From Candidatus Bathyarchaeota archaeon (GTDB taxonomy: Archaea > Thermoproteota > Bathyarchaeia > Bathyarchaeales > Bathycorpusculaceae): a stretch of DNA of 64,000 nt. The position numbers were made by a program, and so were the translations under genes. Below are positions 55 through 28,612 of this stretch, piece after piece. The notes under the pieces are model-generated. The model was given only the letters and a program-made list of their open reading frames with translations. It was not told the origin of the DNA and made no database searches. The DNA lies in the NCBI GenBank assembly GCA_963702095.1, contig OY969706.1, forward strand, positions 896,001 through 960,000, written 5' to 3'. Position 1 is the stretch's first letter, and each line of letters begins with the position of its first letter.

Positions 55-753
55 TCAGAAGTCAAATGAGAAGCTCTCGGCCATAATCCGCTTCATAATC
101 CCTAAGCCATGCCGTAGCTTAAGTTTCTTGACGCCCATTCTGGTCCGGTAATCGATAGGGACCTCCATAATTCGGTAACCCCGTCGTTCCACAAGAGAGT
201 TCATTTCCGCTTCAACATCAAAACCTTTGCTTTTGGGTTTCCAACCGTTTAAAATATCGCTGCGCACCACACGTAACCCTGAAAGTGGATCATCAAGTTT
301 GACCCCATTCATGAATAGTTGTGCTAACGCCAAGAGCTTGTTGCCAAGGTAGAACGGGTTAGTTAACGATTTTGAAATGTTGTGTTTACCCTTGAAACGG
401 TTTCCGATAACCATACCGACTTTGGGGTTTTGCTCTAAGATTTCAACCATCTGGGGGACGTATTCAGCTGGGTAAGTGTAGTCGGCGTCGGTGAAGACGA
501 TATAGGGCACCTTAGAGGCAAGCCCCCGCAACCCCTGAAACATAGCGTCTCCTTTGCCTTTACCTTCCTGCAACAAGACGTCTGCGCCCATGTTTTTGGC
601 TATCTCTATGGTTCGGTCGACACTATTGCCGTCAACCACAACCATGTAGGGATTATTTAGAACCCGCTGCATTTCGCCGAGTGTGGGTCCAATCCCTTCT
701 TCTTCGTTCAGGGTAGCAATAACTACGGATATACTTGAGTTTAGTTCGATCAC
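55..753 (-). CDS. Glycosyltransferase family 2 (DPM1-like)
   Basis: SVVIATLNEE, VVDGNSVD, FTDAD (DxD), GFDVEAE motifs; start moved to GTG at 753 behind a GGAGG SD. Confidence 0.9.
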   Translation of the reverse strand: MIELNSSISVVIATLNEEEGIGPTLGEMQRVLNNPYMVVVDGNSVDRTIEIAKNMGADVLLQEGKGKGDAMFQGLRGLASKVPYIVFTDADYTYPAEYVPQMVEILEQNPKVGMVIGNRFKGKHNISKSLTNPFYLGNKLLALAQLFMNGVKLDDPLSGLRVVRSDILNGWKPKSKGFDVEAEMNSLVERRGYRIMEVPIDYRTRMGVKKLKLRHGLGIMKRIMAESFSFDF

Positions 754-899
754 AGAAAAAAGTCCTCCCAAAAAAGGGAAAACGGCTTCCATTGTTAGTC
801 GGGGAAACAAACCTTTAAAGCCGTAAGGAAGAAACATACTGAACAAACGCCGGATTGTTCTAGACAATCAAAAAAAGGTTAACGTGAAAAAGTAGCAAT

Positions 900-2030
900 T
901 CAGCTTAGTCTATGTGTTAAGACTTCGATTTTGTCAACAACGAAAGCTACGTCTTCATCAGACAACTCCATGTGCACAGGCAAAGCTATGGTTCTAGACA
1001 AAACCTCCTCAGCCACCGACAAGTCTCCATACGAGAAACCGCCTAGCGTCCTGTAGGCTTCTTGCATGTGACAGGGCGGATAGAAAATGTTACCTGTCTC
1101 CACACCATACTCTTCCATGAGCACTTTGGTGAATTGTTGCCTATCAATGCCGCCGCCTAAAATCAAGGGGTACTTATAGTAGGCGCTACGGTATCCGTCT
1201 GGGCAACCTACCGTTTTTAAACACTCATTTTCTTTGAAGGCTTCGTCGTATGCTTTGCAGATTTCGTTGCGTCTGGCGACGAATTCATCGAGCCGTTTCA
1301 ACTGGTAAATCCCCAGAAGCGCCGAAATCTCCGCCATCACCATGTGGCGGCCCACATTGACGAAGTTTGTTTTCCCCGCGCCCGAACCATAGAAGCTGTA
1401 GAGCTTAGCGAACTCGCAAAGCTCGGCGTTGCTGGATGCCATCATGCCGCCTTCCCCTGTGGTGATGACTTTTGTTGGAGTGAAAGAGAAAACAGCGGCG
1501 TCGCCGAAACTGCCGGCTTTTTTGCCATAAACGCTGGCGCCGATGGCATGTGTTGCATCCTCGATAAGGAACAAGTTACGGTTTCTGCAGATTTCTTGTA
1601 TGCGTTGCAAATCAGGGTTAGGGAAACCTGCGATGTGGGTAACAATGACTCCACGGGTGTCCGATGAGAGGTTTCTCTCTAAACTATCGGGGTCCATGGA
1701 GAGGGTGTCTGCTTTAATGTCGGCGAAAACCACTTTGCCGCCTGCAAACATCACGCTGTTAGGAACAGAAATGAAACTGTTAGTGCAAACCACAACTTCT
1801 TTGCCTTCGACGCCGAAGTAGCGAAGAGCCGTTTCGTAGGCGCTGGAGTCAGAGTCAAAAGCCACGGCACCGTCAACACCGAGGTAGGTGGCTGTTTGAT
1901 CTTCGAAGATTTTCACGTTTTTTCCAAAACGGAATTGGCCGTCCTCAAGGACTTTGCCGATGTCACCTAGGAGGGGGTTGATGTCTTCTTTGGGGAAGAA
2001 GGGTTTGGATGAACGGATAAGTTTGGGCAA
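900..2030 (-). CDS. DegT/DnrJ/EryC1/StrS PLP-dependent sugar aminotransferase
   Basis: LIEDATHAIG and FSFTPTKVITTGEGG (PLP lysine) motifs. Confidence 0.92.
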   Translation of the reverse strand: MPKLIRSSKPFFPKEDINPLLGDIGKVLEDGQFRFGKNVKIFEDQTATYLGVDGAVAFDSDSSAYETALRYFGVEGKEVVVCTNSFISVPNSVMFAGGKVVFADIKADTLSMDPDSLERNLSSDTRGVIVTHIAGFPNPDLQRIQEICRNRNLFLIEDATHAIGASVYGKKAGSFGDAAVFSFTPTKVITTGEGGMMASSNAELCEFAKLYSFYGSGAGKTNFVNVGRHMVMAEISALLGIYQLKRLDEFVARRNEICKAYDEAFKENECLKTVGCPDGYRSAYYKYPLILGGGIDRQQFTKVLMEEYGVETGNIFYPPCHMQEAYRTLGGFSYGDLSVAEEVLSRTIALPVHMELSDEDVAFVVDKIEVLTHRLS

Positions 2031-2041
2031 ATGTGTTCCTC

Positions 2042-2668
2042 TTAGAAGTCGTAGGTTACGGTGAAAAGGTGGAATTTTTCGTCTAGGATTGCATGTATGA
2101 TTTGCCAGACTGAGTGTTTGTAGAGGCGGTGGAAAATGAAGCCGAACCGTATGGGCGGTAACGCGCCGTTTCTAAGTGATTTTATGTAGAGTCGGTTGTT
2201 GTTTTTGTATATGATCCAGGAATGCACTTTTTCGCCGTACAACAACTCGTTTAGCCATGAGGGCCCTTGGATGTAGCCGTGCTTTGAGACGCGTTTTAAC
2301 TCCTTAAGCAGCGTCCAGGGGTCGCTGAGGTGCTCGATTAAGTAGTAGCTGGTTACAAAATCGAACGCTTTATCCCTAAACGGCAAAGAATAGCAACTAC
2401 ACATAACAAAGGGCTTATCGTCGGTGACCAGTTTCTTCATGCTGCGGTCAGGCACAGGCTTCACGTTGAGGTCACAGAGCACGTTGGCTTCTGGGAACGG
2501 TTTAGCGCCACAGGCAATGTCTAGACAGAGTGCAGAGCCATCCACGTTTAAACCTACGGCTTGGTAAAATTTTTGTTTGCCAAATTTGAAGCGATCAAGC
2601 TCAGATTGGCGAATGGGAACCCGCTGTAGCACACCGTTTTTCTGGACTTCTGTTGGCATGCCAAGCAC
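2042..2668 (-). CDS. Class I SAM-dependent methyltransferase
   Basis: LDIACG motif I; LPFRDKAFDFV..YLIEHL; lies inside the sugar operon; exact start uncertain. Confidence 0.8.
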   Translation of the reverse strand: MLGMPTEVQKNGVLQRVPIRQSELDRFKFGKQKFYQAVGLNVDGSALCLDIACGAKPFPEANVLCDLNVKPVPDRSMKKLVTDDKPFVMCSCYSLPFRDKAFDFVTSYYLIEHLSDPWTLLKELKRVSKHGYIQGPSWLNELLYGEKVHSWIIYKNNNRLYIKSLRNGALPPIRFGFIFHRLYKHSVWQIIHAILDEKFHLFTVTYDF

Positions 2669-2675
2669 TGCTGAG

Positions 2676-3815
2676 TTACTGTTTTGCTGATTCAGCGATG
2701 GCTGCTACGAGGCTACTGCGGATGTAGTCAACGTTTTCTTTTGTTACGCCAACATGCATTGGTAAGCAGAGAACTTGTTTGAGTACGCGTTCAGCGGCGG
2801 GGAAATCGCCCATCCGTGTCCCATATGTCTGCATGTAGTAGGGGTGGAGGTGGCAGGGTGGATAGTAAACGTGTCCGGGTTCAATCTGGTATTTCTCTTT
2901 GAGCAACGCCGCAACTTTTAAGCGGTCAAAGCCGTCGGCGAGCACTAGGGGGTATTTGTAGTAGCTGTGCCTAAACCTCGACGACAACTTGAACAACGCC
3001 ACGCCTTCAACGTCGCCTAAGGTTTCTTCGTACCAGCGGGCGACTTGGTTACGTTTAGTTATGAATTCGTCGAGGTGTTCTAGCTGGTTTCGTCCCACAA
3101 TCGCCGACAACTCACTCATACGCCAGTTATGACCCAAAACAACCATAAGTCGATCTGCGTTTTGTCCGCATGTTCGTACACATCGGGCTTGATCTATGAA
3201 GTCGTCTTTGTTTGTTGTGATCATGCCGCCTTCACAGGCGGTCATAACTTTTGTGGGGTAAAAAGAGAAGCAGCCTATGTCGCCGAAGGTCCCCGCTTTT
3301 TGCCCATCCAACATGGCGCCATGTGCATGTGCGCTGTCCTCTATGAGAAAGAGACCCTTGTTTTCGCAGAAGGCTTTGAGTTCACGAATCTGCGGACAAA
3401 CCAACCCGGCGATGTGTACCACAATTACGCCGGCGGTTTTGTCGGTTACTTTGCGTTTGACATCGTCTACGTCGAGGCCTAAGGTTTCAGGGTTCATTTC
3501 GGCGAATACGGGTTTGCCGCCTGCAAAAACAACGCCGTTGGGTGTAGAGATGAAAGTGTTGGTGGGAACTATGACTTCGCGGCCCTGCAAGTTATAGTGG
3601 CGCAGAGCCACATCCAACGAGGCTGAGCCTGAACTTACACCCACCGCATACTTCACCTGCATATAATCTGCGAATTTTTTTTCGAAGTCCTGCAGATATG
3701 GCCCATCAGTCAATCTGCCGCTTTTAAGCATTGATTTTACTTCTTCGCTTATGGTGTTTAGGCTCTCTTCAGAAAAATAGGGAAACGATCCAAAAATCAT
3801 GTTTTTATTCCTCAT
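2676..3815 (-). CDS. DegT/DnrJ/EryC1/StrS PLP-dependent sugar aminotransferase
   Basis: IEDSAHAHG, FSFYPTKVMTACEGG, GHNWRMSE motifs. Confidence 0.93.
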   Translation of the reverse strand: MRNKNMIFGSFPYFSEESLNTISEEVKSMLKSGRLTDGPYLQDFEKKFADYMQVKYAVGVSSGSASLDVALRHYNLQGREVIVPTNTFISTPNGVVFAGGKPVFAEMNPETLGLDVDDVKRKVTDKTAGVIVVHIAGLVCPQIRELKAFCENKGLFLIEDSAHAHGAMLDGQKAGTFGDIGCFSFYPTKVMTACEGGMITTNKDDFIDQARCVRTCGQNADRLMVVLGHNWRMSELSAIVGRNQLEHLDEFITKRNQVARWYEETLGDVEGVALFKLSSRFRHSYYKYPLVLADGFDRLKVAALLKEKYQIEPGHVYYPPCHLHPYYMQTYGTRMGDFPAAERVLKQVLCLPMHVGVTKENVDYIRSSLVAAIAESAKQ

Positions 3816-3816
3816 T

Positions 3817-4485
3817 TTACCAGGGTTTTCCGCCCATGCAGAAAAGGTAGTCTATGACTGAGAGGTTGGAGATGAATCCGCCGTTGCATTGGGCGTAGAC
3901 GGGTTGGCGGAAATCTTGAAAGATCAGTTTAATGCCTTCTTTTTCGAATAGTGATCGGTCAATATAGTTGCGGCAGCCTTCGCCTGCAAGCTGGACGTCT
4001 GCGCCGACTTTTTTGCATTGAGCCACGATTAACTCGTTTTTTTTGCCGTCCACCCCCAACGTGGAACTCAAAACTATGGGGCGGTCGATTTTTAGGAAGC
4101 CCATGATGCCGCGTATCAGATGCATGTTTAGGTCAATGAGTTTATCCCATTCATGCTGGTAGGTCTCCTCGAAGAATTCTGCGTATTCGTTCCAATAGGG
4201 AGCTTTACAGTAGCCGTGTTTTATGGTTAACCAGTGTTTGCGTCCCCAGCTGGGTTCGCCTTTGTTGGCGATTTTTACTTCGTTGATGAGTAAAGGTTTG
4301 TTTGCGTGTTCAATTGGGACACTGAGCCATCTGACGCCGTCGGAGGTTAAGACTCGGTTGCGGCTAGTGAAGCCTTGCCGTTCAAACTGGACGTTGTCTT
4401 CAATGATGAATATGTCGGCGCGTCGCATTTTGTCGAAGAAGCCAAGCCAGGGCAGGTAATTAGGTTGGTGTCCAGCAACAATCAT
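3817..4485 (-). CDS. WbqC family protein
   Basis: HQPNYLPWLGFFDK N-terminus and NLSVIDYLF C-terminus typical of WbqC. Confidence 0.9.
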   Translation of the reverse strand: MIVAGHQPNYLPWLGFFDKMRRADIFIIEDNVQFERQGFTSRNRVLTSDGVRWLSVPIEHANKPLLINEVKIANKGEPSWGRKHWLTIKHGYCKAPYWNEYAEFFEETYQHEWDKLIDLNMHLIRGIMGFLKIDRPIVLSSTLGVDGKKNELIVAQCKKVGADVQLAGEGCRNYIDRSLFEKEGIKLIFQDFRQPVYAQCNGGFISNLSVIDYLFCMGGKPW

Positions 4486-4500
4486 AGGGTAATCGCCGGT

Positions 4501-5138
4501 TTAGGGTGAGCTTAAACGTTCAACGTAACGCACGACTTCGAAGGCTTCGGCGGCTGTAAGACTAACTTGGCTGCCCCTAAAAGACGCGAGGTTAACCATC
4601 GATTCGTAGGTGATATACCGCTTAGTTTTCTGTGAGAAATGACATTTCAAAGCGGTCCACTTGTCGTTTACGCTGTTAGTGATGTCTACGAAGTAGGTTG
4701 GCGAGAAGTTGTGGGTTACACGTGGGGTCTCGTATGCGAGAACCTGGGAGCATTCCTAAAAGCTGACATCGAAGCCCAGCCGACTTGGCGGTGGTCTTGG
4801 TGAATGTCGTTGACGGTATGTGTCAGTATGGTTTCTGGTCTATTAGCGACGTAGAAGGCTTCGAGGAAGTCGATGGCTTGTCTAGAGCAGGGGATTTCTG
4901 TGTCGGGGAAATCGCCGAAGTAAACTTCGTTAACACCCAAGTAGGAGAGTGCTTCAATGCTTTCTTTTGGGCGAACTTCAGGGTTGCCGCTGTGTTCACC
5001 TTTGGACATAAAGACAGCTATGACTTTTTTGCCGAGTCTTGAGGCAGCCCGGATCGTGCCTCCGCAGCCCAGTTCAATATCATCAGGGTGGGCACCAACT
5101 GCCAAGATAACGTTGGATCTTAGAACCAAGCTTTTCAC
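4501..5138 (-). pseudogene. PIG-L/LmbE family deacetylase, frameshifted at ~4747 (possibly an assembly error)
   Basis: AHPDDIELG and DIHQDH motifs; the C-terminal half (VLAYETP..PTYFVDI..KWTALKCHFSQ..AEAF) continues in another frame to TAA at 4501. Confidence 0.8.
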
Positions 5139-21366: not shown

Positions 21367-21615
21367 ATGGTGATTTTTTTGGCACAGAAAAAAGTAACCA
21401 GACAAGAACTAGAAGAAAACAACGGACAAAACGGCAAACCAGCCTACATACTCTACAAGGGCAAAGTCTACGATGTAACGGAAAGCAGTTTCTGGATGGA
21501 GGGCGAACACATGGGCATGCACAACGCCGGCAAAGACCTCACCGAAGATTTAGAGATGGCGCCGCATAAAGAAGAGAACTTTAGCCGCGTAAAATACGTC
21601 GGCGACTTAGAGTAG
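21367..21615 (+). CDS. Cytochrome b5-like heme/steroid-binding protein
   Basis: GKVYDVT..W..GEH...HNAGKDLT....APH. Confidence 0.88.
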   Translation: MVIFLAQKKVTRQELEENNGQNGKPAYILYKGKVYDVTESSFWMEGEHMGMHNAGKDLTEDLEMAPHKEENFSRVKYVGDLE

Positions 21616-22839
21616 GCATTGTAGCACAGAGTCAATCTGCACTATATCCGCTAACACATTTTTTACTTCCACCTCAGCTAGGGTGGTGCGGTTCTGGTGG
21701 ATTTCGGTTACTGTTTGGGTTAAGCTGTCAAAAGCTCCTTTAACGTCCAAGTCGTTGTTCATGTGCGCTTCAAACTCGCTTCGCAGTCTGCCGACATATG
21801 AATCGCCCTGACACTTCTCAGATGCACTCATACCCTGCAGGTCCGCAATCATGCGCCTCAAAGAATCCATTTGCTCACTTGCTTGCCCAAGCTTTTCAAA
21901 GGTGAAATTGAGCACTTCTCGGTATGGACCATAAATTAGGAAAAACCGCAGTTGAGATCCGCTAAAACCCTTGGCTGCAACATCGCTTGTGTAGTACACG
22001 TTACCTTTGCTCTTGGACATTTTTTCTCCGTCAACATAGAGGTGTCCGCCGTGTAGCCAGTAACGCGAAAACTGTTCGCCGGAAACTGACTCGGCGATTG
22101 CGAGCGTGTAGTCATGGTGCCGCACCAAGTTGTCGATGCCACCACAGGCGATGTCTATGCTGTAGCCTAAGGTTTTTGTTACGATTGCGGCGTCTTGGAT
22201 GTTCCATGCTGGGCGACCACTACCGACTGGCGTATCATAGCAGACGTCTTCTAGGCCGCAGCCATGCCAAATGATGAAGTCACCCATGTTCCATGGCGTG
22301 CCAGGATAGGTGTCTTTATGGTAACGCCGATGCCGCTTGGGCCATTTACTCATGTCGAGGTGTGCCAGTTTTCCGAAGCCCCGAAATTTAAGGGGGTCAA
22401 AATAGGCGTTTTTGACGCCTCGATAGATGTACCAGTAAGCGTAGCCGCAATCAAGAAGCTTAGCAACCAAATCAGTAGCTTGGTCAACCGCCCGCGACGC
22501 CCTCACTGGATAATCGGGTTTTTTTATGTGCAGTAACTTAAAGTCTTCAAAGAAGACCGCTTCATTCTTCTGGGTTAACGCCTCCACGGTTAACCCCTCT
22601 TTTTTAGCTTGGATAATGGCTTTGTCCTCCACGTCAGTTAACGCCATAGCCCGGGTAACTTTGTAACCGAGGTATTCGAGGTAGCGTTGGAGTATGTCTT
22701 CGAAGAGGAAAGTGCGGTAGTTGCCGATGTGCGCCCGCTGATACGTCGAGGGTCCGCACGTGAACATTTTGACTTTGCCCGGTTCGGCGGATTGGAAGGG
22801 CTCGATTTTACGTGTGAGGGTGTTGTAGATGTTAAGCAC
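21607..22839 (-). CDS. Cysteinyl-tRNA synthetase-like class I ligase (divergent paralogue)
   Basis: IYNTLTR, CGPS, HIGN and KMSKS retained; WHIEC replaced by WNIQD, HHENE by HHDYT; ends after the DALR helices. Confidence 0.85.
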   Translation of the reverse strand: MLNIYNTLTRKIEPFQSAEPGKVKMFTCGPSTYQRAHIGNYRTFLFEDILQRYLEYLGYKVTRAMALTDVEDKAIIQAKKEGLTVEALTQKNEAVFFEDFKLLHIKKPDYPVRASRAVDQATDLVAKLLDCGYAYWYIYRGVKNAYFDPLKFRGFGKLAHLDMSKWPKRHRRYHKDTYPGTPWNMGDFIIWHGCGLEDVCYDTPVGSGRPAWNIQDAAIVTKTLGYSIDIACGGIDNLVRHHDYTLAIAESVSGEQFSRYWLHGGHLYVDGEKMSKSKGNVYYTSDVAAKGFSGSQLRFFLIYGPYREVLNFTFEKLGQASEQMDSLRRMIADLQGMSASEKCQGDSYVGRLRSEFEAHMNNDLDVKGAFDSLTQTVTEIHQNRTTLAEVEVKNVLADIVQIDSVLQCLL

Positions 22840-23308
22840 TGGTTTTTTCCTCTTGCTCTAGCATTTGGAGGGTTTCTTTTGCTTCCTCCACATGCCGTTG
22901 CGCTTGAGTCTGCGAATTAAAAATGTGTCGGACCACGCCCTTCTTGTCTATAATGTAGGTGACTCTGCCAGGCAGAATCCCCATACTATGCGGCACCCCG
23001 TAGAACTCCCGCACTTTGTTGCCCACATCAGCCAACAGTATAAACGGCAGCCCATAATGCGTTGCAAATGCCACATGTGATTCGACGCTTTGGCCGCTTA
23101 CGCCCAACACTTCGGCGCCTAAATCTGCCAGTTGCTGGTAGCTGTCGCGGAAACTGCAGGCTTCTTTTATGCATCCGGGCGTTTCATCTTTGGGGTAGAA
23201 GTAGAGAACTATGTTTTTTTTGCCTAGGTACTCTGATAGGGTTACGTTGTCGCCCATTTGGCTGGGTAATGTAAAATCTGGGGCTTTATCGCCAACTTTA
23301 ACCGTCAA
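22832..23308 (-). CDS. bcp: Peroxiredoxin (BCP/PrxQ)
   Basis: YFYPKDETPGCIKEACSFRD. Confidence 0.93.
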   Translation of the reverse strand: MTVKVGDKAPDFTLPSQMGDNVTLSEYLGKKNIVLYFYPKDETPGCIKEACSFRDSYQQLADLGAEVLGVSGQSVESHVAFATHYGLPFILLADVGNKVREFYGVPHSMGILPGRVTYIIDKKGVVRHIFNSQTQAQRHVEEAKETLQMLEQEEKTSA

Positions 23309-23488: not shown

Positions 23489-24715
23489 TCACTTTTTTCT
23501 TCTGTAAATGACACCCACCGCTACCGATATTGCAGCTATTACTATCACAGCAGTTGAAGCGATTATTGCGTTTTGCGTCTCATTCGCAATTGGGACTCTA
23601 GGGTTCGGTTCTTGGGTGGGAGTGGGTGTTTGGGCTAACAATGGGTCAGGCCCTGTACCATAGCCGAGGGGCGAGTACCGCTCGTTTAACGCGAAATGTT
23701 CGACAGTGTAACTGTCTGGTAGAGAATCAAAGTAATCTGGATAATGGTAGGTTGTATGAATGCCTCCTATGGCATAGATAAGATCGTTTGCCGTGGCAAC
23801 GCCGAAACCAGAGCGATCTGTGGGCTTAGCGATGTCAACACTCCAGCTGTTATCGAATGGGTTATACACTTGTGCAGATTGATAATGCAGAAGAGCAGCA
23901 TCAAACAAATAGATTCGTAGTGACGCATTTTTGCCGTTAGTTATGGCAGCTACAGAGTAAGCGGCGTATAGCGGTGAATGCGCACCCGAACTCCATTGAT
24001 CTGTTTTTGGGTCGTAAATCTGGGTTGAATTCTGAACTACTATATTTTTTAGTTGGAGTCCACCAAAGACGTATACCTTATTAGCGAAGGTAGTTGAGGC
24101 ATACCATCGGGTACCGACTGGGATTGACGCCTTTGTAGTCCATGTGTCTGTGGTTGGATCATATTCTTCATTTACTGAGAGACTGGCGTCGGTATAGGTG
24201 TCATAGGTTCCGGGTGTCTGTCCGCCGATTAGGTAGATTTTGCCGTTTACTGTATTGGCTTGCAAGTAAACTCTGGCTGTTGGCATGGCTGCTTTGGTTT
24301 CCCATGTGTCGGTTGTTGTATCGTATACTTCGTTTACGGCTGCGTATATTGGTGCGTGGTCTTCGGGTTCTTGGTGGTAGCCTGTGATTCCGCCGATACA
24401 GTATATCTTATTTTGGACGACAGCTATAGCGAAATTGTATCTAGCAGTTGGCATTGGTGCCTTGTATTCCCAACTGTTTGTTGCAGGATCATATACCTCG
24501 TTTGTTGATAATGCTTCACCATCATCGCCTCCTATCGCATAAATCTTATCGTTGACGGACACTACGCCTAAACCTGCTCTTGCTTGTTGCATCGGCGCCA
24601 TTTGAGTCCAAACGTTGTTTGATGCCCCAACGTTACTACAAAGACTTGGTTGAAGGACTATCAAAATGAGTAAGATGGATAGCACCGAGAGAACCGTTAT
24701 TTTTCTCAAGCGCAT
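23489..24715 (-). CDS. Secreted Kelch-repeat protein with C-terminal membrane anchor
   Basis: About six IYxIGG..YDP..W Kelch repeats, signal peptide, PT linker, TM followed by RRKK. Confidence 0.9.
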   Translation of the reverse strand: MRLRKITVLSVLSILLILIVLQPSLCSNVGASNNVWTQMAPMQQARAGLGVVSVNDKIYAIGGDDGEALSTNEVYDPATNSWEYKAPMPTARYNFAIAVVQNKIYCIGGITGYHQEPEDHAPIYAAVNEVYDTTTDTWETKAAMPTARVYLQANTVNGKIYLIGGQTPGTYDTYTDASLSVNEEYDPTTDTWTTKASIPVGTRWYASTTFANKVYVFGGLQLKNIVVQNSTQIYDPKTDQWSSGAHSPLYAAYSVAAITNGKNASLRIYLFDAALLHYQSAQVYNPFDNSWSVDIAKPTDRSGFGVATANDLIYAIGGIHTTYHYPDYFDSLPDSYTVEHFALNERYSPLGYGTGPDPLLAQTPTPTQEPNPRVPIANETQNAIIASTAVIVIAAISVAVGVIYRRKK

Positions 24716-24865
24716 ATACATAACTAAGTGATTGGTGTTATATGAGGTTTTGTATCCAATCAATTAGGGCAACAATTTAGTTACTAACCATAACTACTAA
24801 TAGCGAAAAATTTAAAAGGAAACTCTTTCACATCAATATTATTAGCATTCAACCGCCAAAAGGTT

Positions 24866-27800
24866 ATGCCTATGAAATCGTTTCTCATTACAACAATCAT
24901 CCTAATTATTCTTATCACAAGCGTCTTTACAGTTACTTTACCCAAAACACAGGCAACTGAACTTAACTTAACTCAAAAAGGGGAAATATTTCTTGGCAAT
25001 GTTTTAAATTTGGACTTAACTAAATACTATATAGAAACAAAAACATACCCTTTAGATAGCTCGTCTTTATACTTAGGCATAGTTCCGCAAGACAGCATCG
25101 GCTACAAACTTACTTCGGAACATAACAAAATAGAGCTTGTGTGTACTTTTATCGACGGAAATTTACATATGCTTTTTGTAACCAACAATGAAGGCACAGC
25201 ACAACTTCTCGAAACTGACAATAATAGCCCCATTGAGGTAGCAAGGAGTTTTCTAGCGAGCTATCAGAACTTCGCTGATAATGCACTATTTGGCGGATTG
25301 GTTTCAACTCTAGAGAAAGCGCAGCAGGGTGAAAATTTTACTACAACGCTTGGAAACATTGCGCTAGAGGCTACATATGCAGCAGATTCTGCCACATTCA
25401 GGTGGCATTATGCAGCTAACGGGGCTGAAGCGTCATATTCAAAGTTCATTTCGCTTGTCGTAAAAAATGGTTTAGTGACTGGATTTATTGACAACTGGCA
25501 ACTGTACACTGTAGGAAACAATGCAGTAAATCTTACTGAAAAAGAAGCCTCAGAGATTGCCTTACAAGCAACAAAAGCTCATGTAGCAGGATTTGAAAAA
25601 TATGGTCTAAATCAAAATAATATTAATGGCTCAAATGTACGCTGGGCAAGGCTTATTTTTGATAACTCTTTAAACGTAAGTGTTCCACGTAGTAAAGACC
25701 TTCTAGAATTATTTCCAGTTTGGCGAGTCGGTATTGCATTAGATAAATGGTATGGCTCAATGTATGGGGTAGAAGTTGACATTTGGGCGGATACCAAAGA
25801 AATCCGGTCTATCGAAGAAGCCTGGGGCGACTTACCTCTATCAGATCAACAGGAAATTGTTAACACCACTTCAATTCAACAGAATATCGCTAACCCCATT
25901 GCTACCCAGCAGGTCGGCGCTTCTATTCCAACTAAGGAGTCAGAACTAAACATTCAGCCGATATTAATAGTAACAGGCGGTTTTCTTTTTGGCACAGGAC
26001 TTACAATTACTTATTTGAGTTGCAAAAGAGGTAAATTGCCCAAATATTTACTTAGGTCTAAGCCGATGGCTCTAGTTACGTTATCATTAATAGTATTACT
26101 TCTCGTTCCAATTGGCTTAGTTAGTGCAAACACCAAAACGGCTGTCGTTTGGGGAGCAGAAAGTACTGGTGCAACCGGTTATCAAGGACCTGATGGACCA
26201 AGTTGGCGTAAGCAAGCATGCGAGGTCACACAGCAACAATCAACAGCCATTACTATCAGGAACTACTTCGCGAATTACGGAGGATATACGGCGTATAATC
26301 ATCAAGGAACTGTTGGGCCATCTACACATTTAGCTATATTAAGTGATATTAATTCCTACAATTCTGTTAACAGTCGAGCTGTCTATATCGATTTTGATCA
26401 TGGTAACTGGTATGACAAGTCATTAACAGATCGGAATCACTTTATTTTTGAAGATCAGGTTGGAACATTAATCGGCACTTTTGATGATTATCTAAATCAT
26501 CGAGTAGTTTCTAACCCAACTGGGCTTGTCTATGATGATGAGATAAATGCCAGAACAAATAGCAGCACAACGTTATTTGTTTTGATAAACGCTTGTAATT
26601 CAGGCGCCCTATTTAATTTACTAGATGGCACGAGATGGCAGGGTACTAGCAACAAAATAGGTTTGCCTTATGGTTTTACGCACCGGACAGTCGAAAACAA
26701 AGAAGACCCTATACCGGGTATTTCGTTCGATATTAAAAGTCATATGAGCGACGATGCATATTTTTATCCAGATGATGGCTGCCAAGTTTTCATGGGTTTC
26801 GTAGGAGGATCAATTTCTCTAAGCCAAAAAATGCCCTACCCTGACGGCACAAACTATTATTCAACATTTATAGAGAGATTCTTCTACGACGCACTATATT
26901 ATGACGATACATCGGTAAATTGTGCTCTTGATATGTCTTCTTTTGAGACCCTTGGTGGCAGATATTACTCAGACACATTGTGCCCTCTTAGAAGTTTTAC
27001 AGCTTATTGGTGGATGCCGCCAGAAACACATTTAAACCCCCTTGGGCCAGGTCATTTAGTTGTCTACGGTAACGGCAGAATTCAGCTCAAAAGTTTCAGC
27101 GATGACTTTAATGATGGTAATTACAATGGCTGGACAGTAATTCCTCCAGGTTCATGGACAGTAACGGGCGGCAAATTAAAAGCCCAACAGGGGAACTCAT
27201 TAATCCGAACCAACGAGCAATTCTCAAACGACCGATTCCTTCGAGCAAAAGTACAGACGCTCACAACTGGTACAAACTCATGGGATGTCGCTTGGGTTAT
27301 GGCTAAATATGTAGACAATAACAACAAAGTTTACGGGTTGATACACAAAGACGGTAAAGTAGAACTTTCTCTTTTTCGAAATGGGCAGCAATATCCATGG
27401 CAAAGTGCAGCCAACAGCACACTTCATCCTACTGATTGGCATACTATTGAAGTAAATATCGTGGGAAACAAGGGTTGGGTATTTGTTGACGGCGTATTCA
27501 AAATTAGTGGAACCAGCGATTACTTCGATGATTTTAGTGGCTATGCGGCACTACATACCCATACCTCGGCAACAGCTTACTTTGACGATATCACCGTTGT
27601 GGAACAACAACCCTGGTCTACTTATCACAAACTAACAGTCAATTCCTCTACAGGGGGTACCACAAGTATTGCCCCTGGCGTATACAATTATACTGCTGGT
27701 ACACCGGTTACCGTAACTGCTTATCCTTCTACTGGATATCATTTTAGCCATTGGCATGACTATGGCGTTGATGCCTGTACTCAAAACCCAATAACAGTGA

Positions 27801-28612
27801 CAATGAATGCGCCGCACAAGTTACAACCTCAGTTTACAGCCGACTATTACGTTACATTCCAAGTTGCGTCTGGTTCTGGAACCACTGACCCTAGTGTTGG
27901 AGTACATAGCTATAATCAGGGACAAGTGGTGCCAATACATGCTATTGCATCACCCGGACAAGTTTTCGACCACTGGGATAGCTTAGGCCTTATGAATATA
28001 GCAAATAGCCACTCAGCGGATACGACAGCGACTATATGGAGTAACGGGACAATTATGGCATATTTCCATCAATCGCAATGCTCCGTGACCGTAACAAGCG
28101 ATGGCCACCTCACTACGAATCCAAGCGGAACCAGCGTCTATACATACGGAGCAGCAATTCCGATTTCTGCGACAAATACACCCGGGTACGAGTTTGATCA
28201 TTGGGTTTCCCCTGGTAATACTATAGATAATCTCTACTCAGCCTCAACCACTGCCCACTTAACTAACGATGGAACCATAACTGCCATATCGCATCCTGCG
28301 GGAGTCACCTCTTGGACCGTTCATACTTGCTATTATGTTTATGATGGGTATGTGGGGACCGCGCAGGTTGGAGAAGATTGGCAGACGGTTGATGCGGGCT
28401 GGCATGATTTCTATTATCCAAATCAGTGGGAGGATCCTTGGTTCCCGGGGTATATGTCTGACTTCTGGTATGCAATTACTGACGACGGCTTGCAATCTTG
28501 CAATTATATTCCGTTCCATGTTCAAATAACACGCGATACTACGATTAATGTCTATTATATCACCAATTTCTCGGGAATGAGGGATTTTCCGCCTACGGAA
28601 GAAACAGGTTGA
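24866..28612 (+). CDS. Large multidomain surface protein: N-terminal domain, internal TM hairpin, caspase/gingipain-like peptidase domain, ConA-like domain, InlB B-repeat-like repeats
   Basis: Signal peptide; two TMs near aa 365-420; YIDFDHG and VLINACNSG; FSDDFNDG..FDDITV; three G.T.P..G..Y..G..V...A....GY.FDHW repeats. Confidence 0.75.
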   Translation: MPMKSFLITTIILIILITSVFTVTLPKTQATELNLTQKGEIFLGNVLNLDLTKYYIETKTYPLDSSSLYLGIVPQDSIGYKLTSEHNKIELVCTFIDGNLHMLFVTNNEGTAQLLETDNNSPIEVARSFLASYQNFADNALFGGLVSTLEKAQQGENFTTTLGNIALEATYAADSATFRWHYAANGAEASYSKFISLVVKNGLVTGFIDNWQLYTVGNNAVNLTEKEASEIALQATKAHVAGFEKYGLNQNNINGSNVRWARLIFDNSLNVSVPRSKDLLELFPVWRVGIALDKWYGSMYGVEVDIWADTKEIRSIEEAWGDLPLSDQQEIVNTTSIQQNIANPIATQQVGASIPTKESELNIQPILIVTGGFLFGTGLTITYLSCKRGKLPKYLLRSKPMALVTLSLIVLLLVPIGLVSANTKTAVVWGAESTGATGYQGPDGPSWRKQACEVTQQQSTAITIRNYFANYGGYTAYNHQGTVGPSTHLAILSDINSYNSVNSRAVYIDFDHGNWYDKSLTDRNHFIFEDQVGTLIGTFDDYLNHRVVSNPTGLVYDDEINARTNSSTTLFVLINACNSGALFNLLDGTRWQGTSNKIGLPYGFTHRTVENKEDPIPGISFDIKSHMSDDAYFYPDDGCQVFMGFVGGSISLSQKMPYPDGTNYYSTFIERFFYDALYYDDTSVNCALDMSSFETLGGRYYSDTLCPLRSFTAYWWMPPETHLNPLGPGHLVVYGNGRIQLKSFSDDFNDGNYNGWTVIPPGSWTVTGGKLKAQQGNSLIRTNEQFSNDRFLRAKVQTLTTGTNSWDVAWVMAKYVDNNNKVYGLIHKDGKVELSLFRNGQQYPWQSAANSTLHPTDWHTIEVNIVGNKGWVFVDGVFKISGTSDYFDDFSGYAALHTHTSATAYFDDITVVEQQPWSTYHKLTVNSSTGGTTSIAPGVYNYTAGTPVTVTAYPSTGYHFSHWHDYGVDACTQNPITVTMNAPHKLQPQFTADYYVTFQVASGSGTTDPSVGVHSYNQGQVVPIHAIASPGQVFDHWDSLGLMNIANSHSADTTATIWSNGTIMAYFHQSQCSVTVTSDGHLTTNPSGTSVYTYGAAIPISATNTPGYEFDHWVSPGNTIDNLYSASTTAHLTNDGTITAISHPAGVTSWTVHTCYYVYDGYVGTAQVGEDWQTVDAGWHDFYYPNQWEDPWFPGYMSDFWYAITDDGLQSCNYIPFHVQITRDTTINVYYITNFSGMRDFPPTEETG

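Follow-up and report, generated by a model that had tools for sequence, protein, structure and literature searches.

The 64,000-nucleotide stretch of a Candidatus Bathyarchaeota archaeon genome analysed here (assembly GCA_963702095.1, contig OY969706.1, positions 896,001-960,000; the whole stretch is called the window) carries an open reading frame for a protein derived from cysteinyl-tRNA synthetase (CysRS), which we call PAR, for CysRS-derived paralogue. PAR is an accessory paralogue and not the CysRS of the cell, and its role very probably lies outside ordinary protein synthesis. Our preferred reading, held with moderate confidence, is that PAR is an ATP-dependent amino-acid ligase that arose from CysRS in the manner of MshC, that would hand its amino acid to an acceptor other than tRNA(Cys), and that would serve in stress defence.

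PAR, canonical CysRS and the PAR family

The genome, a single contig of 2.94 Mb, has a second match to the cysS model TIGR00435 elsewhere (512.3 bits, model positions 2-465 of 466), and because of this canonical cysS PAR is not the sole Cys-charging enzyme. The original prediction, which had called PAR a paralogue from its sequence, is borne out on this point. The canonical protein has 473 aa, reads GRPGWHIEC, DVHCGG and PHHENE, possesses the C-terminal domain and is 36% identical to PAR, which itself scores 310.4 bits on the same model, under the cut-off of 340, and covers profile positions 1-399 of 466. A canonical-type CysRS match was found in 40 of 41 genomes (that of the window, G000, and 40 relatives), the exception being a genome that is 56% complete. 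Among five distant carriers of the PAR family, three have canonical CysRS above the cut-off; a Methanomethylovorans metagenome-assembled genome (MAG) has SepRS (745.9 bits) in place of the expected canonical CysRS, and in a MAG labelled Methanocella (L037) neither canonical CysRS nor SepRS was detected. The contig of the latter is syntenic, gene for gene, with the Bathyarchaeia genus of the window, and its PAR is 74% identical to the window's. It is probably misbinned, and misbinning may also account for the Acidoferrum, Binatia and Chloroflexi labels on proteins of 69-70% identity.

PAR matches the CysRS catalytic domain of Pfam (PF01406, 4.9e-73), and NCBIfam holds no model for its family. 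The AlphaFold2 model of PAR (pLDDT 93.1, pTM 0.93) is closest in Foldseek to CysRS 8qhp (TM 0.88), with 1li5 and 1u0b at 0.84-0.86 and MshC at 0.84-0.85, and its matches in the ESM Atlas are confined to generic 'class I tRNA ligase', CysRS and MshC clusters. Of the domains of CysRS, PAR contains the Rossmann fold, CP1, the SC-fold and the helical bundle, and it ends at residue 410 without the alpha/beta anticodon-binding domain. That it stops after the DALR helices is based on the alignment to CysRS structures, which extends to residue ~405, and on the AlphaFold2 model; the Pfam DALR_2 model gives no match in PAR at E<=0.01. The motifs, the coordinates, the 8-bp overlap with the upstream bcp gene and the missing anticodon domain were all found to be as first described.

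The zinc site of E. coli CysRS is made up of C28, C209, H234 and E238. In the alignment of PAR to this enzyme (1li5), CGPS, HIGN, GRPAWNIQD (residues 208-216), DIACGG (residues 229-234), RHHDYT and KMSKS pair with CGIT, HIGH, GRPGWHIEC, DIHGGG, PHHENE and KMSKS, respectively. Two of the four zinc ligands, C28 and H234 (His241 of PAR), are kept, and the other two are replaced, C209 by Asp216 and E238 by Thr245.

We used the conservation of canonical CysRS to ask what has changed in the family as a whole, comparing 98 canonical representatives with 51 family members at the 88 positions that are at least 85% conserved in the canonical set. Within the shared region lie 81 such positions, of which 54 are kept in the family, 18 are relaxed and nine are switched to another conserved residue (T31S, T115S, Y155F, K192H, H213N, E215Q, C216D, P240R and N244Y); all seven of those in the C-terminal domain are absent. 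The kept positions include all those known for ATP and adenylate binding, and the residues for ATP and the amino-acid backbone (HIGN, KMSKS, T68, D69 and D236) are invariant or nearly so in the 51 members. Twelve of the 18 relaxed positions fall between residues 211 and 248, among them H231 (E. coli H224), E245 (E238) and Q248. The H, E and C of WHIEC are each 100% conserved in the canonical set, and C209 and E238 stand at 100% there and at 0% in the family. Set against canonical CysS, then, PAR has the same fold and keeps HIGN, KMSKS, T68, D69, K73, W205, D229, H234 and H235, whereas the family differs in having Asp for C209, Thr or Asn for E238, Asn for H206, Gln for E208, Tyr for N237 and Arg for P233, and does not conserve H224.

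A further change concerns the CP1 segment, which in CysRS is reported to recognise the first base pair of tRNA(Cys) (PMC5389517). Here the canonical xAGARV gives way to a basic stretch conserved in the family, WPKKxRRFHKDTYPGxRWN, in which P167, D176 and Y178 are invariant across the 51 members and W166, R172, G180, W183 and N184 nearly so. Judged from these patterns, the site for ATP and the amino-acid backbone is intact, the side-chain and metal pocket and the acceptor loop are rebuilt, and the anticodon reader is gone.

The family is large. A search of 90% clusters listed 120 relatives of 68-100% identity, nearly all of 407-416 aa, which bear only the names 'class I tRNA ligase family protein' or 'cysteinyl-tRNA synthetase'. 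Pattern scans gave at least 598 relatives with one genome per species (598 of 600 among the matches listed) and at least 549 in metagenomes (549 of 590 among the matches listed). In an exhaustive search of 50%-identity representatives, WN[IV]QD and RHHDY occurred together in at least 14 of the best 150 matches, the remainder having WHxEC and HHENE or close variants. Hosts among the matches listed are Bathyarchaeia, methanogen MAGs, Desulfobacterota, Nitrospirota, Spirochaetota and Anaerolineaceae, and one cultured isolate, Desulfoferrobacter suflitae DRH4 (Desulfobacterota, locus L061), carries the gene. No description of the family was found in a search of the main texts of open-access papers, and the reviews consulted name only MshC and CysRS* as CysRS paralogues (PMC9437257).

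Across the alignment of the 51 diverse members, in which identity falls as low as 41%, the motifs WN[IV]QD and HHDY are found in all 51. Invariant residues comprise C28, G29, P30, S31, Y33, H37, G39, N40, D48, T68, D69, E71, D72, K73, W212, N213, Q215, D216, G234, D236, H241, H242, D243, Y244, E250, H263, M274, K276, R298 and R307; the other residues of KMSKS (K273, S275 and S277) are at least 90% conserved. The ratio of nonsynonymous to synonymous substitution rates (dN/dS) between PAR and its closest relative is 0.094 (dS 0.575), more distant pairs being saturated. The substitutions in PAR are thus conserved under purifying selection and are not decay. The changed pocket of the original prediction stands as far as these conserved substitutions go; the changed amino acid that had been read from it is a possibility only, since C28, Asp216 and His241 could still hold a thiolate-binding metal.

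A phylogeny with CysRS also upheld the grouping: in a quick FastTree of 172 rows, MshC not among them, the 51 members and P0129, a family member with a scrambled WNxQD region, form one clade with an SH-like support of 87. Branching next to this clade are the degenerate protein P0205 and P0147, a 405-aa Micrarchaeota protein whose WNVQC and HHENT place it midway between the family and canonical CysRS. Within the class, the accessory gene was found in 14 of 201 genomes and in 4 of 82 genera, a patchy distribution; within the genus, 18 of 24 other genomes in one draw carry it, and two of these copies look broken. Copies that are split or have in-frame stops were seen in three genus genomes (G021:C7:9930-11092, G022:C6:14149-15374 and G194:C14:55410-56204), and the broken copies suggest recent loss in some lineages.

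Gene neighbourhoods

Neighbours of PAR were counted in 160 loci, half of them (80) from genomes and half (80) from metagenomes, which are related to one another and include some near-duplicates. A Bcp cluster is present in 42 of them and adjacent to PAR in 40, followed in frequency by Cyt-b5 (36), DinB (17, in all of which it lies directly downstream of PAR), MatE (12, in all of which it lies directly upstream) and CNNM/CorC (11). In loci with the Bcp cluster PAR is 53-100% identical to the window's, with one exception at 51%, and a small Cyt-b5 protein adjoins PAR in 34 loci of the Bathyarchaeia clade. The order PAR then dinB belongs to a second Bathyarchaeia clade, matE then PAR to a Nitrospirota/Syntrophales subclade, and corC then PAR to a Syntrophobacteraceae-like subclade in which fusions of an alpha/beta-hydrolase with OsmC and of HPF with a cold-shock domain also lie upstream. 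A different Bcp lies nearby in two loci of other clades (L126 and L200), superoxide dismutase (SOD) is found near PAR in two loci and Hsp33 in one. It is these neighbours, Bcp, dinB, matE, corC, osmC or SOD, that would place PAR in the oxidative or general stress defence of anaerobes. By-eye inspection for LexA-type boxes upstream of matE or corC gave nothing obvious.

Coupling of PAR to bcp had been claimed from the overlap of the two genes in the window. Among genus relatives bcp is adjacent to PAR in 16 of 18 loci, and a bcp orthologue is missing from four of the five genus members that do not carry PAR. The fifth non-carrier (G017) retains the syntenic membrane gene, cyt-b5, bcp and the next gene, with PAR precisely absent, and two loci (G008 and L049) have PAR without bcp. 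Thus, the link to bcp is real but limited to one Bathyarchaeia clade, and bcp and PAR are separable; the claimed coupling holds for that clade and not elsewhere.

Several candidate partners were considered and rejected. A dedicated tRNA is one: there is no tRNA in the window and none adjacent to PAR in 60 loci, only five of which hold any tRNA (the nearest at ~2.9 kb and none for Cys or Sec), and ARAGORN's 50 calls on the genome include a single tRNA-Cys, no tRNA-Sec-like gene and nothing else unusual beyond two oddities. These are a tRNA with a four-base anticodon (ttcg) at G000:C1:1235811-1235888 and a tRNA-Leu with a 1725-nt intron at 1553484-1555302, both probably artefacts of the intron mode. 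As for a carrier protein, the small ORFs beside PAR are mutually unrelated, except for the Cyt-b5 protein of the Bathyarchaeia clade. A partner of the MshB type was rejected as well: PIG-L deacetylase is absent in four of five diverse carriers, one of them a 97%-complete single-contig genome, and present in three of five genus non-carriers. The original prediction had hinted at redox or small-thiol metabolism; a small-thiol pathway of the mycothiol type finds no support in this distribution of PIG-L. Neither glycosyltransferase, deacetylase nor acetyltransferase is among the 25 commonest neighbour Pfam families in the genome or the metagenome sample, MshA and MshD not having been searched singly.

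No Rosetta-stone fusion emerged, the family signature being found in none of 18 long CysRS-like proteins. At L101, L104, L049 and L085 the open frames are long but contain no further Pfam domain, and their starts look over-extended. Among the 18 long proteins (P0278-P0295), which have canonical zinc sites, fusions are to PALP/cysteine synthase (P0278-P0281, P0283, P0292), to a GT2 glycosyltransferase (P0284, P0285, P0288, P0289, P0293, P0295), to a class III aminotransferase (P0286) or to an HMGL-like domain (P0294); those with GT2 could be enzymes that carry out two steps of thiol synthesis. Desulfoferrobacter suflitae has a third CysRS-like match (G041:C53:233096-234484, 260.9 bits) in an open frame of 801 aa, probably of the cysteine-synthase/CysRS-like fusion type.

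Proposed metal site and acceptor, and alternative explanations

MshC (TIGR03447; PDB 3c8z, 8hfm) resembles the family in having a CysRS-derived core of the ATP-dependent ligase type without an anticodon domain. For the active-site segment of PAR (195-260, 66 residues) the best PDB match is MshC (44.6 bits), ahead of the highest-scoring CysRS (35.9 bits). MshC reads WHVEC, DIQGGG and PHHEYS, and has in common with the family a Tyr at N237, Ser or Thr at E238 and the loss of H224. The analogy drawn in the original prediction is therefore stronger than was claimed, HHEY-S and the absence of H224 being features of MshC as well. Because the E238 equivalent is lost, the metal site of both would have at most three protein ligands. 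However, MshC keeps both zinc cysteines (WHVEC), whereas all 51 family members have the Asp of WN[IV]QD; H206N, E208Q and P233R set the family further apart from MshC, and its CP1 region matches CysRS and not MshC. KMSKS and the Arg and Tyr residues of the SC-fold are kept in both, and say nothing on tRNA binding because MshC, which is tRNA-independent, keeps them. Hosts differ too, the family occurring in anaerobic archaea, Desulfobacterota, Nitrospirota and Spirochaetota among the matches listed and MshC in Actinomycetota. We assume the likeness at Tyr237 and Ser/Thr238 to be convergence.

Short CysRS of DPANN archaea (~405-417 aa; e.g. P0132, 'cysteine--tRNA ligase [Candidatus Micrarchaeia archaeon]') likewise have the length of the family and no C-terminal domain. 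Most short CysRS-like representatives outside the family, however, keep WHxEC and HHENE, and a Tyr at 237 is found in none of 14, whether or not the zinc Cys and Glu are canonical. As a natural control, they show that the changes to the pocket are not accounted for by the missing anticodon domain alone.

If PAR is the ATP-dependent ligase that we propose, it would activate an amino acid as the aminoacyl-adenylate, with the side chain on a three-ligand metal site of Cys, Asp and His (C28, D216 and H241), compared with Cys, Cys and His in MshC. As C28, D216 and H241 would still hold a metal, the leading candidate for the substrate is cysteine or a close analogue. The nucleophile that then takes over the amino acid would not be ordinary tRNA(Cys) but, most likely, a small molecule or some other acceptor that is not a tRNA. 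In the clade of the window the enzyme would be co-transcribed with the Bcp peroxiredoxin, and the family as a whole may be an accessory CysRS-derived enzyme spread by horizontal transfer among strict anaerobes of the Archaea and Bacteria. Cys-to-Asp mutants of the zinc cysteines in E. coli CARS and human CARS2 are reported to lose translation activity (PMC5660078).

More tentatively, the family could be a tRNA-independent ligase of cysteine or a cysteine analogue that makes a protective small molecule, such as a low-molecular-weight thiol feeding Bcp-type peroxiredoxins. It would then be a second MshC-like invention, separate from MshC and built on a Cys/Asp/His site, made by strict anaerobes, archaeal and bacterial, without glutathione, mycothiol or bacillithiol, with the neighbouring MatE and CorC transporters providing export or buffering in bacteria. 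We offer this fuller version as speculation that is more doubtful than the general reading.

A number of points weigh against PAR being a stress-defence ligase with a non-tRNA acceptor. Among the neighbours examined, no enzyme that would make the acceptor or use the product is conserved beside PAR in any clade, and no fused form of the family appeared among the 18 long CysRS-like matches. The stress link comes from neighbourhood alone, and this varies by clade within a set of related loci; moreover, bcp is found without PAR and PAR without bcp. The replacement of Cys by Asp, His by Asn and Glu by Gln may point to another metal or to a side chain that has no thiol. Finally, the strongly basic character of the CP1 loop and its retained 'GARV' Arg (R172, 90% conserved) would suit an RNA acceptor, as would the kept SC-fold and helical bundle, and CysRS* is reported to charge tRNA without an anticodon domain (PMC5389517).

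PAR might be a specialised aminoacyl-RNA synthetase whose target is either tRNA(Cys), recognised at the acceptor end only, or a different tRNA or RNA, an explanation that we regard as rather unlikely but as a serious rival. It is favoured by the conserved, basic CP1 loop with its Arg172 and by the SC-fold and helical bundle, with R298, Y306 and R307, although the SC-fold residues are equally kept in the tRNA-independent MshC. Precedents are GluQRS, which modifies tRNA(Asp), and CysRS*, which charges selC* tRNA. The latter, a CysRS variant with a changed CP1 motif and no anticodon domain, charges tRNA in vivo and shares its operon with a tRNA(UCA) and a copy of SelB, as described by Mukai et al. 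(Nucleic Acids Res 2017, PMC5389517). In contrast, no tRNA adjoins PAR in the 60 family loci, ARAGORN calls a single tRNA-Cys and nothing resembling tRNA-Sec in the genome, and the 25 commonest neighbour Pfam families of the genome and metagenome samples include none of the SelB type. Also against an RNA acceptor, H224, N237, E238 and Q241 are kept in tRNA-charging CysRS and lost both in MshC and in PAR.

Another way to view the altered metal site is as an adaptation to zinc shortage or oxidative damage, PAR being a back-up CysRS that needs less zinc or has fewer oxidisable thiols. Zur-regulated CysS paralogues are reported from proteobacteria (PMC2770081, PMC10882993), a carboxylate does replace one thiolate ligand in PAR, and the carriers come from sulfidic, metal-poor anoxic habitats, judged from record titles. 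Full-length CysRS with WHIED also exist (P0204, P0224 and P0247, of 458-462 aa), with Asp at C209 and otherwise canonical motifs, apart from a Cys at the N237 position in two of them. A back-up enzyme, however, fits poorly with the loss of the anticodon domain, with the rebuilt CP1 acceptor loop, with the patchiness of the gene in its class and with the loss of translation activity in the Cys-to-Asp mutants of CARS. Nor is cobW (COG0523) among the 25 commonest neighbour Pfam families of either sample, and neither znu nor zur could be recognised among the families listed. We therefore consider this explanation improbable.

Lower still, to our minds highly improbable, stands an enzyme of the MshC type proper, which in a pathway like that of mycothiol or bacillithiol would couple cysteine to an amino sugar freed of its N-acetyl group; the pathway partners of MshC are given as MshA, MshB (the PIG-L deacetylase) and MshD (PMC7278568). 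The shared domain set, the Foldseek TM to MshC and the common Tyr237, Ser/Thr238 and H224 loss would fit, and the genome's only PIG-L deacetylase lies in the window, ~16.5 kb from PAR, in a surface-sugar cluster. Against this, PAR reaches only 187.1 bits on TIGR03447 (cut-off 485.1), its second zinc Cys is Asp, and both the occurrence of PIG-L across carriers and non-carriers and the commonest neighbour families argue otherwise, as described above. The least likely explanation, a dedicated cysteine persulfide synthase that has kept the ATP-independent, pyridoxal phosphate (PLP)-dependent persulfide synthase (CPERS) activity of CARS and lost aminoacylation, could draw on the operon with a peroxiredoxin and on reports that C28D and C28/209D EcCARS and C78/257D CARS2 keep persulfide synthesis and lose translation (PMC5660078), but CPERS is reported to need neither ATP nor tRNA, the conserved HIGN, KMSKS and adenylate-binding residues would therefore mean that adenylation is under selection, and the second Lys of KIIK (K76), whose mutation is reported to cut CPERS greatly, is not conserved, the family reading DKAIxEAxK.

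The locus and what the family may mean

Table 1. PAR, its motifs and the genes that adjoin it, in window coordinates
Feature	Position	Strand	Description
PAR, CysRS-derived paralogue	21607..22839	-	410 aa, GTG start, from the ORF list
CGPS, residues 28-31	22747..22758	-	holds the kept first metal-ligand Cys, C28; part of FTCGPSTYQRAHIGN
HIGN, residues 37-40	22720..22731	-	class I HIGH-type ATP motif; part of FTCGPSTYQRAHIGN
Rebuilt CP1 loop WPKRHRRYHKDTYPGTPWN, residues 166-184	22288..22344	-	replaces the canonical xAGARV segment; from translation and alignment with canonical CysRS
WNIQD, residues 212-216	22192..22206	-	replaces WHIEC; Asp216 at the position of zinc ligand C209
RHHDYT, residues 240-245	22105..22122	-	replaces PHHENE; His241 = H234, Tyr244 at N237, Thr245 at E238
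KMSKS, residues 273-277	22009..22023	-	class I ATP/adenylate loop
bcp/PrxQ-type peroxiredoxin, upstream of PAR	22832..23308	-	158 aa; CxxxxC pair C46/C51; AhpC-TSA 1.4e-38
Small cytochrome b5-like protein, convergent to PAR	21367..21615	+	82 aa; Cyt-b5 1.2e-10

The stop of bcp and the start of PAR overlap by 8 nt (22832-22839), as read both from the ORF coordinates and from the DNA, where the bcp frame ends ...ACC AGT GCT TAA and the PAR frame begins GTG CTT AAC; a GAGGA lies a few bases 5' of the PAR start. C46 and C51 of Bcp are invariant across 28 orthologues. On the other side, the cytochrome b5-like gene and PAR meet end to end. A search of read runs by sequence words gave small shares in two wetland DNA runs only, with no RNA run listed.

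Beyond bcp, a stretch of low GC content (23489-28612, 0.405-0.416 as opposed to ~0.48 in the surroundings) encodes a repeat protein of 424 aa and one of 1248 aa that looks secreted, and separates bcp from the genes that directly adjoin it in relatives. It looks like an inserted island; for the 1248-aa protein, the loci of relatives gave one weak match of 23%. At the far end of the window (55-5138, minus strand) lies the sugar-modification cluster, with a GT2 glycosyltransferase, two DegT-type aminotransferases, a methyltransferase, a WbqC-like protein and the PIG-L deacetylase, and no link between it and PAR was found.

Synthetase paralogues that work outside translation, such as MshC, GluQRS, EpmA, HisZ and the cyclodipeptide synthases, each opened new biochemistry. 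The family described here spans at least 598 species genomes and is under strong purifying selection, with its changes placed at the cysteine and zinc pocket and the acceptor-stem loop and the ATP site untouched. The presence of the gene in Desulfoferrobacter suflitae DRH4 makes the question of its function directly testable in a cultured isolate. Its amino acid and acceptor, once identified, would define a new enzyme activity, and the family might show how strict anaerobes, whose small-thiol chemistry is largely unknown, protect themselves against oxidants.

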